A DNA stretch of 6,703 nucleotides from a virus (taxonomy: Duplodnaviria; Heunggongvirae; Uroviricota; Caudoviricetes), in the IMG/VR virus record IMGVR_UViG_2671180753_000008; one strand, 5' to 3'. Position numbers and translations under genes: made by a program. Shown here piece after piece: positions 5,806-6,060 of this stretch. The first letter of the stretch is position 1; each line of letters opens with the position of its first letter. The notes beneath the pieces are model-generated. The model was given only the letters and a program-made list of their open reading frames with translations. It had not been told where the DNA came from and ran no database searches.

Positions 5806-5834
5806 GCTGGTGGGTGCCCCTAACACCCACCAGC
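5806..5834. promoter_or_regulatory. Perfect 11-bp inverted repeat with 7-nt spacer (GCTGGTGGGTG-CCCCTAA-CACCCACCAGC), candidate operator or RNA hairpin upstream of the methyltransferase
   Basis: Seen directly in sequence. Not followed by a U-tract on either strand, so not a typical intrinsic terminator. Confidence 0.4.
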
Positions 5835-5852
5835 CGCCCATTTACCACAAAT

Positions 5853-5876
5853 AAAAAAGCCTTCACTGCGGAAGGC
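5853..5876 (-). terminator. Intrinsic-terminator-like hairpin overlapping the stop codon of the small ORF
   Basis: Minus strand reads GCCTTC-CGCAGT-GAAGGC (6-bp stem) followed by TTTTTTATTT. Confidence 0.5.
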
Positions 5877-6060
5877 GTCTGTAACAACCGAACTGATAGT
5901 CTGCCAGACCCGCCATAACCAGCTGGGTCAGTATTAACTGGCAGCGTTCGCGTGAAAGGTAAGTATTCTGCGCTATCTCCCCGACTGTCGCCGGTTCGGT
6001 AACGCTTAATTCATTAAACACCACTCTGGCGGTTTCTGTCATATCCTGCTGTTTTAGCAT
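5863..6060 (-). CDS. Small hypothetical protein (65 aa), possible helix-turn-helix or winged-helix DNA-binding protein
   Basis: Good Shine-Dalgarno (GGAAAAGGAAAAG ending about 4 nt before the ATG). Segment TVGEIAQNTYLSRERCQLILTQLVMAGL looks HTH-like. Sits between the tR'-like terminator and the methyltransferase. Confidence 0.45.
   Translation of the reverse strand: MLKQQDMTETARVVFNELSVTEPATVGEIAQNTYLSRERCQLILTQLVMAGLADYQFGCYRRLPQ

Follow-up and report, generated by a model that had tools for sequence, protein, structure and literature searches.

A small winged-helix gene and a conserved structured leader accompany an M.EcoGII-family adenine methylase in the late region of lambdoid prophages

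Introduction

The adenine methyltransferases M.EcoGII and M.EcoGI were described as orphan enzymes of the late region of Escherichia coli O104:H4 prophages (Murray et al., 2018; PMC5778455). M.EcoGII methylates adenine irrespective of context, in DNA as well as in RNA, and is active alone in vitro; it is unexpressed in the lysogen and deleterious when expressed constitutively (PMC5778455; PMC11551740). Homologues with about 93% similarity from O111 STEC strains (E. coli that make Shiga toxin) were also predicted to be non-specific and are inactive in lysogens (PMC6602927). Here we analyzed a stretch of 6,703 nucleotides (nt) from a tailed phage (IMG/VR record IMGVR_UViG_2671180753_000008), hereafter the window. 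It contains a methylase of the same family, length and motif order, likewise an orphan in a prophage late region, which is preceded by a gene for a protein of 65 amino acids (aa) with a predicted winged-helix fold, an intrinsic terminator (T1), and a leader of about 150 nt headed by a palindrome. The published M.EcoGII work consulted here treats the enzyme alone and does not mention the upstream winged-helix gene, T1, or the leader (PMC5778455). Phages widely use M.EcoGII-type enzymes against restriction, and the same enzymes are popular as reagents for footprinting chromatin and RNA; the literature searched gives no account of how phages control a toxic, sequence-blind methylase. The winged-helix gene and the leader hairpin form a conserved unit that probably helps to keep the methylase off until lytic growth.

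Parts of this arrangement recall other described systems. Controller (C) proteins of restriction-modification systems, such as C.PvuII, C.AhdI, and C.Esp1396I, are dimers with an Xre-type, all-helical helix-turn-helix (HTH) fold, have their C-boxes upstream of their own gene, and control the restriction gene. In the pyrBI attenuator, a leader open reading frame (ORF) runs into a terminator, and phages possess RNase III hairpins such as the R sites of T7. PNB-2 and M.EcoPA8orf6770P constitute a two-subunit rRNA methyltransferase of Stx2 phages (Gong et al., 2023; PMC10810198). An earlier reading of the window without database searches (the sequence-only reading) had likened the 65-aa ORF and the palindrome to a C-protein module or to a phage regulator with its operator, with methylase control or late-operon attenuation as possible roles.

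Results

The methylase belongs to the M.EcoGI/GII family

The methylase gene (4654..5712, minus strand) encodes a beta-class adenine methyltransferase of 352 aa of the M.EcoGI/GII family (Pfam N6_N4_Mtase, E=8e-42). Over the full length, 324 of 349 positions (93%) are identical to M.EcoGII, whose sequence was taken from the SUPREM supplement and has a few machine-reading errors in it (PMC11551740). The window enzyme is 95% identical to the methylase of phage 1720a-02, which had been named very similar to M.EcoGII (PMC5778455). Its motifs follow the order DPPY (residues 35-38), a central helical target recognition domain (TRD) with an HTH, and FMGLG (residues 310-314), and a weak HTH_3 match at residues 167-195 falls within the TRD described for M.EcoGII. 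In motif I, which binds S-adenosylmethionine (SAM), the window methylase has FMGLG, as opposed to FMGSG in M.EcoGII and the 1720a-02 enzyme. By its similarity to M.EcoGII and the homologues of about 93%, the window methylase is presumably non-specific and silent in the lysogen.

In agreement with the sequence-only reading, there is no restriction gene in the window, nor did we find one in about ten annotated or called contexts from nine phages and genomes, where the adjacent genes are those for Q, tRNAs, stx, hicAB, and holins. No restriction gene would be expected, because the methylase is presumably a phage anti-restriction hypermethylase rather than one half of a restriction-modification system.

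The 65-aa ORF encodes a predicted winged-helix protein

The 65-aa ORF (5863..6060, minus strand) starts with ATG, is intact, and has the strong ribosome-binding site (RBS) reported by the sequence-only reading, a Shine-Dalgarno sequence AAGGA located 6 nt 5' of the ATG (6058-6071). The same reading had made its interpretation depend on conservation of the ORF in homologous phages. Among 119 related loci collected with an anchor within the ORF, 117 have it uninterrupted and at unchanged length, with 11, 15, and 35 variable sites at the first, second, and third codon positions, respectively, and with 41 synonymous and 30 non-synonymous distinct codon variants. By this pattern of sequence variation, the ORF is a real gene. 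The family is narrow, with lengths of 63-67 aa and two subtypes with recombinants between them, and occurs only in prophages of Escherichia, Shigella, Salmonella, Klebsiella, Citrobacter, Buttiauxella, Kosakonia, and Pantoea. No fusion proteins occur among about 480 homologue clusters. PHROGs assigns the protein to phrog_331, which is catalogued without function.

The HTH-like segment noticed earlier turned out to be part of a predicted winged helix. The AlphaFold2 model, calculated from an alignment of 29 sequences in replacement of a single-sequence run with a pLDDT of 53, has a pLDDT of 91.5 and the topology helix-strand-helix-helix-strand-strand (helices 9-16, 26-33, and 37-49; strands 24, 53-56, and 59-62). 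According to Foldseek, the closest solved structures are MarR/OhrR proteins (OhrR, 2pex, TM 0.81) and N-terminal domains of IclR proteins, and the model also resembles the N-terminal winged-helix domains of SAM-dependent O-methyltransferases. The top 50 matches consisted of MarR, IclR, and O-methyltransferase winged-helix domains, with C proteins absent among them, and viral structure models matched in the same generic winged-helix way. The recognition helix R39-C-Q-L-I-L-T-Q-L, G51, and the wing residue R62 show little or no variation in either subtype, and the DNA coding for the recognition region varies synonymously. The model thus describes a MarR/TrmB-like winged helix of the nucleic-acid-binding type.

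The sequence profiles gave sub-threshold winged-helix matches only: TrmB at 18.0 bits against a Pfam cut-off of 25.6 (E=0.003) and MarR_2 at 14.7 bits against 27. Neither NCBIfam nor Pfam HTH_3 matched the ORF. The protein is not a member of the MarR or TrmB family proper, as its matches lie below the thresholds and it has no room for the dimerisation helices; the label "TrmB family" in some records of homologues is an annotation, not a test. We also considered the winged helix as a DpnI-like reader of N6-methyladenine and rejected this idea, there being no specific structural similarity.

The ORF, the spacer, and the methylase are inherited together

In the 117 ORF-anchored loci of the E. coli type, the ORF is followed by the methylase in 93, by an AraC-like gene in 13, and by neither in 11. 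In Klebsiella, Salmonella, Citrobacter, and Buttiauxella, the ORF is followed after about 150 nt by an N6_N4 methylase of 349-354 aa, and these cross-genus pairs stand behind three different Q families, sometimes with extra genes between Q and the ORF. Altogether, the combination of the ORF, the spacer of about 150 nt, and the methylase is found in six genera or more, with several unrelated Q antiterminators in front of it. When loci with non-E. coli flanks were anchored on the first arm of the palindrome (arm 1), both genes were present in 110 of 120, with a median identity of 53% for the ORF and 81% for the methylase; three had the methylase without a detectable ORF, one of them with a divergent or truncated remnant of type B. 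Anchoring on the methylase placed the ORF upstream in 77 of 78 loci, with the ends of the tblastn matches 154-161 nt apart. A methylase-anchored search for distant relatives returned only homologues with at least 94% identity, and the association covers methylases down to about 70% identity. As far as sequence comparison can tell, the three elements are a conserved late-operon cargo cassette of enterobacterial lambdoid prophages.

The palindrome is conserved as a potential RNA hairpin

The inverted repeat between the ORF and the methylase, GGCTGGTGGGTG N7 CACCCACCAGCC (5805-5816 / 5824-5835), is perfect, as the sequence-only reading had stated, with arms of 12 bp rather than 11, and its position "directly upstream" of the methylase corresponds to a distance of 92 nt from the ATG at 5712. 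When the window was simulated with a first-order Markov model (n=300), the expectation was 0.01 perfect inverted repeats of at least 11 bp with a loop of 3-12 nt per window, and 2 of the 300 simulations had any.

On the sense RNA, folding and pair counts define a stem-loop, termed H2 (5795..5841, minus strand), with an upper stem of 12 bp (5824-5835 with 5805-5816), a loop of 7 nt, a bulge of 4 nt on the 3' side (5801-5804), and a conserved lower stem of 6 bp (AUGGGC/GCUCAU, 5836-5841 with 5795-5800). Arm 1 and its flanks, 21 nt in all (AATGGGCGGCTGGTGGGTGTT), are identical across genera. Arm 2 occurs as CACCCACCAGCC, CACCTGCCAGCC, CACTCACCAGCC, CACCC(AG/GG/GA/AA/GT)CCAGCC, and CACTCAGCCAGCC, a pattern of CACCC-N1-2-CCAGCC in which variation is restricted to the position opposite U7 or to the bulge. 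By contrast, there is free variation in the loop and in the linker 3' of the hairpin. Whereas transitions or a 1-nt insertion in one arm only have broken the DNA symmetry in most lineages, all common versions of arm 2 can pair with arm 1 in the sense RNA by way of G-U pairs or a 1-nt bulge, and pairing is kept in 99-100% of cells. The sense strands of four lineages folded into the same architecture at -33.7 (window), -30.4, -29.9, and -26.9 kcal/mol (z from -6.2 to -4.4), as compared with -18.7 kcal/mol (z -1.7) for the antisense strand of the commonest variant. The pairing of H2 is conserved in a manner compatible with, though not proof of, an RNA stem. In a Citrobacter locus (L134), a 110-aa gene is inserted 3' of the ORF terminator, and the whole hairpin stays with the methylase.

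Two coding interpretations of the region were rejected. A leader peptide starting MGGWWVL... from arm 1 has no RBS and differs in length, 16 versus 33 aa; an indel pair of -1 in the loop and +1 in the arm keeps the H2 structure and alters the residues of this peptide. A 60-aa ORF across the spacer (5705-5887, minus strand) has no Pfam match, and a 1-nt indel breaks its frame in the common phiP27-type variant.

Several loci show exchanges around the hairpin. In phage phiSTEC1575-Stx2k, a gene for an AraC-like HTH protein, preceded by a consensus TATAAT, replaces the leader and the methylase (3321-4195 of that locus). This replacement occurs in 13 loci and starts just 3' of the lower stem of H2; the hairpin is degraded there, with four G-U pairs. 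Two IMG/VR loci (L220 and L234) keep a T1-like hairpin, H2, and the methylase and have a different terminator with about 60 nt of unrelated sequence in place of the small ORF.

T1 and the methylase leader

T1 (5853..5876, minus strand; terminator scan) consists of the hairpin GCCTTC-CGCAGT-GAAGGC (5859-5876), with a 6-bp stem and a 6-nt loop, followed by T6. As claimed by the sequence-only reading, the ORF ends inside this hairpin. Its TGA stop lies in the loop and 3' arm, and the stop is within the hairpin in all seven lineage variants, i.e., in every lineage. Stem pairs 21-32 (UA/UG/GC/CG) and 22-31 (UA/CG) covary across lineages, and the U-tract is weaker outside E. coli. A GC-rich hairpin with a U-tract and compensatory stem changes has the sequence features of an intrinsic terminator, as which we classify T1.

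Downstream of H2, RNAalifold and explicit pair counting on 78 non-redundant spacers outlined a structured leader (5713..5789, minus strand) with three elements. The long-range helix P1 pairs GG(U)UCA..AAGC (5778-5789) with GCUU..UGAUC (5713-5724) and ends 1 nt 5' of the methylase AUG; its position 108-184 appears as GU, GC, or AU. The inner helix P2 (5764-5769 with 5737-5743) has one compensatory pair, UA in 29 and CG in 27. The hairpin H3, CTGCTTTGCGCAAAAGCAG (5745-5763), changes among E. coli variants along the path UA to UG to CG. H3 is also a near-perfect dyad, which in Buttiauxella becomes a perfect palindrome of 16 nt, GCTTTAGCGCTAAAGC, and its half-site spacing in E. coli differs from that in the other lineages by a 1-nt indel. 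For the whole leader structure, 99.0% of cells were paired versus 97.1% in shuffles, with 62 double-sided changes versus 20.8; none of 500 shuffles reached either observed value, and slid controls gave 28-48% pairing. The methylase start has no recognisable Shine-Dalgarno sequence, and its AUG is paired in the minimum-free-energy fold of the window. Rfam 15 has no family at the palindrome or leader, the sole match being sub-threshold and on the opposite strand (P26, 24 bits versus 36, E=0.1).

Chi sites and deletion derivatives

Both arms of the palindrome carry the Chi octamer GCTGGTGG, of which only the sense-strand copy, within the invariant arm 1 (5827..5834, minus strand), is conserved; the mirror copy (5806-5813, plus strand) is present only in the perfect-palindrome variant. 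Another Chi lies in the 5' leader of the ORF (6142..6149, minus strand, sense) and is found at this position in 134 of 203 non-redundant loci. The window holds six octamers in 6.7 kb against 0.24 expected, at 2521-2528 (minus), 5007-5020 (both strands), 5806-5834 (both strands), and 6142-6149 (minus). The inverted pair at 5007-5020 forms a 14-bp palindrome, CCACCAGCTGGTGG, inside the methylase gene. Within 3 kb to either side, the 203 loci have 0.78 Chi per kb on the late-transcript strand and 0.37 per kb on the other. The average density in E. coli is roughly 0.1 per kb per strand. RecBCD that enters from the cos side would recognise the sense orientation.

The loci of GN02270 and PhiR5_1 match the window up to the exact end of arm 1, and the sequence beyond is identical to a DUF3927 mini-gene of the window (2465..2596, minus strand; Pfam DUF3927, E=1.7e-27), which lies 3' of the cassette and the tRNA genes. 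The crossover fell in shared microhomology, GCTGGTGG-GTG versus GCTGGTGGCGGGTG, the second copy with its Chi being at 2521-2528 in the DUF3927 gene. Therefore, recombination at the Chi of arm 1 removed the segment with the methylase and the tRNAs from the loci that have only the ORF. These loci are, on the evidence of their junctions, secondary deletions; they show that the palindrome is no operator retained alongside the ORF, and they are no proof of a functionally independent ORF. In the methylase-less prophages (for example L004, 3342-3416), the deletion also made a chimeric DUF3927 ORF of 24 aa, MVNGRLVGVVVVAFPLLKKKTPDC, which begins inside arm 1.

The region upstream of the ORF and the genomic setting

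Every lineage has an intrinsic terminator upstream of the ORF, with a lineage-specific stem, followed after about 60 nt by an invariant block and then the RBS. This non-coding block, CTTGCTGG-N13-ACAAGAGTTATTGGTGTGTCAC (6083..6120, minus strand), is kept in Escherichia, Klebsiella, Salmonella, Citrobacter, Buttiauxella, and the type-B lineage between completely different flanks. It includes the sole lineage-consistent sigma-70-like match, TTGCTG-17-TATTGG, which is weak and was obtained with permissive scoring. The block may serve as an operator, as a region where transcription starts, or as an RNA element.

In minus-strand orientation, a lambdoid late region begins in the right third of the window, with the order Q, tR', the 65-aa gene, T1, the leader of about 150 nt, the methylase, and three tRNA genes. 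The 3' part of the Q antiterminator gene (6285..6703, minus strand; Pfam Antiterm PF03589, E=6.5e-32) has a frame open to the window end, where the gene runs off the edge, and its homologue in E. coli TOE17 is annotated as an antitermination protein. The tR'-like intrinsic terminator 3' of Q (6181..6204, minus strand; terminator scan) coincides with a mosaic boundary that separates the Q module from the ORF-methylase module, since BLAST alignments with many phages carrying other Q genes begin at about 6204. Segment 5600-6400 shares 99.8% identity with a prophage adjoining ompW in TOE17, and EHEC Sakai carries copies of the cassette. By megablast, 3137 of 5426 complete E. coli genomes match some part of it, some of them the Q portion only, and 1063 hold at least 80%; many Stx2 phages, phiP27 and 1720a-02 among them, match as well. 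In a collection of species-representative genomes, the only matches were two metagenome-assembled genomes: one labelled Bacillus sp. (L127), which has an E. coli-type module on a 2.5-kb contig and probably represents bin contamination, and one labelled Spirochaetota (L126), a chance 20-mer match.

The tRNA cluster (4211-4613, minus strand), Met/Ile2(cat), Arg(tcg), and Arg(tct), follows the methylase directly. It occupies the position that precedes stx in phiP27 and the Stx2k phage; in the window, insertion sequence (IS) elements and iraM are in the place of stx. Three genes for STnc100-family small RNAs (sRNAs) (821-1010, 2210-2399, and 3945-4134, all minus; Rfam 122-133 bits) are relatives of the prophage PasD sRNAs treated by Zhu, Shabalina and Storz (bioRxiv 2026). 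They form 164-nt direct repeats interleaved with two IS3-family transposases (1170-1988 and 3007-3723, plus strand), and there is a run of N near 4440-4520; this pattern suggests IS-mediated duplication or an assembly artefact. The literature searched places none of the prophage sRNAs StxS, AgvB, HnrS, and Pas at 5795-6060.

Discussion

We lean, with some reserve, toward layered silencing of a toxic late methylase by terminators and a leader RNA, complemented by a dedicated winged-helix partner. A sequence-blind methylase would have to be silent in the lysogen and switched on late, at the stage when new phage DNA has to be protected. Being the first cargo after tR', the cassette would be read by Q-modified RNA polymerase only, and without this modification transcription would halt at tR' and a second time at T1, whose 5' arm is made of the last codons of the ORF, so that a ribosome finishing the ORF could weaken termination. 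The palindrome would then act as RNA and not as a DNA operator, in the form of the stem-loop H2 of about 19 bp that heads the methylase leader and likely sets its fold, stability, or processing. P1, which pairs the bases just 5' of an AUG lacking a Shine-Dalgarno sequence, may hold translation low. The winged-helix protein is most likely the nucleic-acid-binding accessory of the cassette, either as a regulator on the leader or the upstream block or as a modulator of the enzyme. A stricter version, in which the protein and the invariant arm or hairpin are a safety device that confines hypermethylation to lytic growth by binding the leader, as RNA or DNA, or the enzyme, seems unlikely to us. If true, it would represent an antidote or controller logic convergent with C proteins and antitoxins and built from different parts, and phrog_331 would be the first known native regulator of the widely used M.EcoGII.

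Several points weigh against layered silencing. H2 is without double-sided covariation, arm 1 being invariant, and E. coli-only shuffles equalled the observed value, so the conservation of H2 could stem from a sequence constraint, such as Chi or a protein site, rather than from pairing. The relatedness of the sequences inflates the shuffle statistics of the leader. A standard sigma-70 scan of 5600-6400 found no promoter, and no strong promoter for the ORF was found. In 24 of 117 loci, the ORF is intact and the methylase absent, and two or three loci have the methylase and the hairpin without the ORF; neither gene strictly requires the other to persist. Lastly, we infer processing by RNase III, occlusion of the translation initiation region (TIR), and ribosome-T1 coupling from the anatomy of the locus.

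Could the winged-helix protein be a transcriptional controller, with the palindrome or the H3 dyad as the operator gating the methylase in the manner of C proteins? The DNA-binding-type fold with its invariant recognition helix and basic wing residue, the near-obligate co-inheritance with the methylase, and a palindrome far beyond chance together with an H3 dyad that is perfect in Buttiauxella would suit such a role, and the toxicity of the methylase makes extra control plausible. We nevertheless judge it quite improbable, and the likeness to C-protein modules drawn by the sequence-only reading did not survive the comparison: the fold is not an Xre-type HTH, there is no restriction gene, and a 65-aa winged helix lacks the MarR-type dimerisation helices. 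The site lies 3' of the regulator gene and past a terminator, its DNA symmetry is lost in most lineages while RNA pairing is kept, and the 1-nt indel in H3 shifts the half-site spacing between E. coli and the others. The alternative of that reading, a regulator with the palindrome as its own operator, conflicts with the same loss of symmetry and with the Citrobacter locus in which the hairpin has remained beside the methylase. The outcome that this reading had itself named as refuting, an ORF kept and a palindrome lost, occurs in 11 of 117 loci, which argues against the operator and leaves the link between the ORF and the methylase intact, because these deletion derivatives also lost the methylase. 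The direction of the proposal, methylase control or late-operon attenuation, still holds, as the spacer looks like a control region of the methylase; its C-protein form does not. An action on the enzyme itself, as a PNB-2-like targeting subunit or as an antidote against leaky expression, is rather unlikely. It has a precedent in a small winged-helix protein that is encoded upstream of a Stx-phage methyltransferase, forms a holoenzyme with it, and sets the substrate (PMC10810198), and the structural matches include the N-terminal winged-helix domains of SAM-dependent methyltransferases. Tight co-inheritance and the combination of a toxic enzyme with a small upstream gene also recall a toxin-antitoxin layout. 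However, M.EcoGII is fully active and non-specific alone in vitro, unlike the partner enzyme of PNB-2, and belongs to a different methylase family (PF01555, not MT-A70). Moreover, a terminator and 150 nt between the genes do not provide built-in stoichiometric co-expression, about 20% of the E. coli-type loci retain the ORF in the absence of the methylase, and fusions are absent from the roughly 480 homologue clusters.

Other explanations assign the palindrome or the ORF to functions apart from the methylase. The palindrome might be a recombination feature only, a conserved Chi with a partly decayed mirror that serves as a hot boundary for the swap or deletion of late cargo. Arm 1 is invariant with its Chi, the perfect variant has Chi on both strands, the octamer is in excess in the window and dense in the 203 loci, BLAST breakpoints fall at about 5823 and 5789, and the methylase-less prophages arose by crossover exactly in the arm-1 Chi microhomology. 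As the only function of the palindrome we consider this very unlikely: Chi leaves the invariance of the 21 nt around it unexplained, arm 2 keeps complementarity and not Chi across genera, the 6-bp lower stem is conserved, and the hairpin is embedded in a leader with covarying helices. The recombination role and the RNA role are not mutually exclusive. The ORF, in turn, might be an independent moron expressed in lysogens, a regulator directed at host or phage whose adjacency to the methylase is positional only. Its unit anatomy, with an upstream terminator, an invariant block with the weak TTGCTG-17-TATTGG, a strong RBS, and its own T1, and its intactness beside the AraC-like gene (13 loci) or DUF3927 (11 loci) are in keeping with this idea, to which we give little credence. 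The weak promoter match escaped the standard scan, the loci with the ORF alone go back to secondary deletions, and the linkage to the methylase across genera and Q types at a fixed spacer length exceeds the positional expectation in mosaic regions.

Returning to layered silencing, the new elements for M.EcoGII-type enzymes are a partner gene that is nearly always present, a conserved structured leader, and a recombination point containing Chi. The last explains gain and loss of late-region cargo, including stx in related phages.

Compared with known systems, the locus shares with C-protein modules a small protein of the DNA-binding type beside a methylase whose untimely expression matters, and a nearby palindrome. 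It differs in the winged helix, the lack of a restriction gene, and a palindrome that lies 3' of the ORF, travels with the methylase, and is lost in 11 of 117 ORF loci. PNB-2 and M.EcoPA8orf6770P are alike in layout only (PMC10810198): that system has an MT-A70 enzyme at the phage's left end, whereas here a beta-class N6_N4 methyltransferase of a kind active alone, as in M.EcoGII, is located in the late operon; the PNB-2 module is absent from the left end of phage 933W. With attenuators and occluding leaders, the locus has in common the ORF stop inside T1 and the helix P1 over the downstream TIR, but the upstream ORF encodes a conserved protein predicted to fold, and not the disposable leader peptide of pyrBI-type leaders. 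The predicted succession of lower stem, one-sided bulge, and upper stem in H2 resembles the shape of phage RNase III sites such as the R sites of T7. The methylase is of a known enzyme family, the ORF belongs to a family that is catalogued and uncharacterised, the leader lies outside Rfam, and no description of the triad of ORF, leader, and methylase was found in the literature searched. We regard the finding as a moderately interesting regulatory arrangement around a known enzyme rather than a new class of system.

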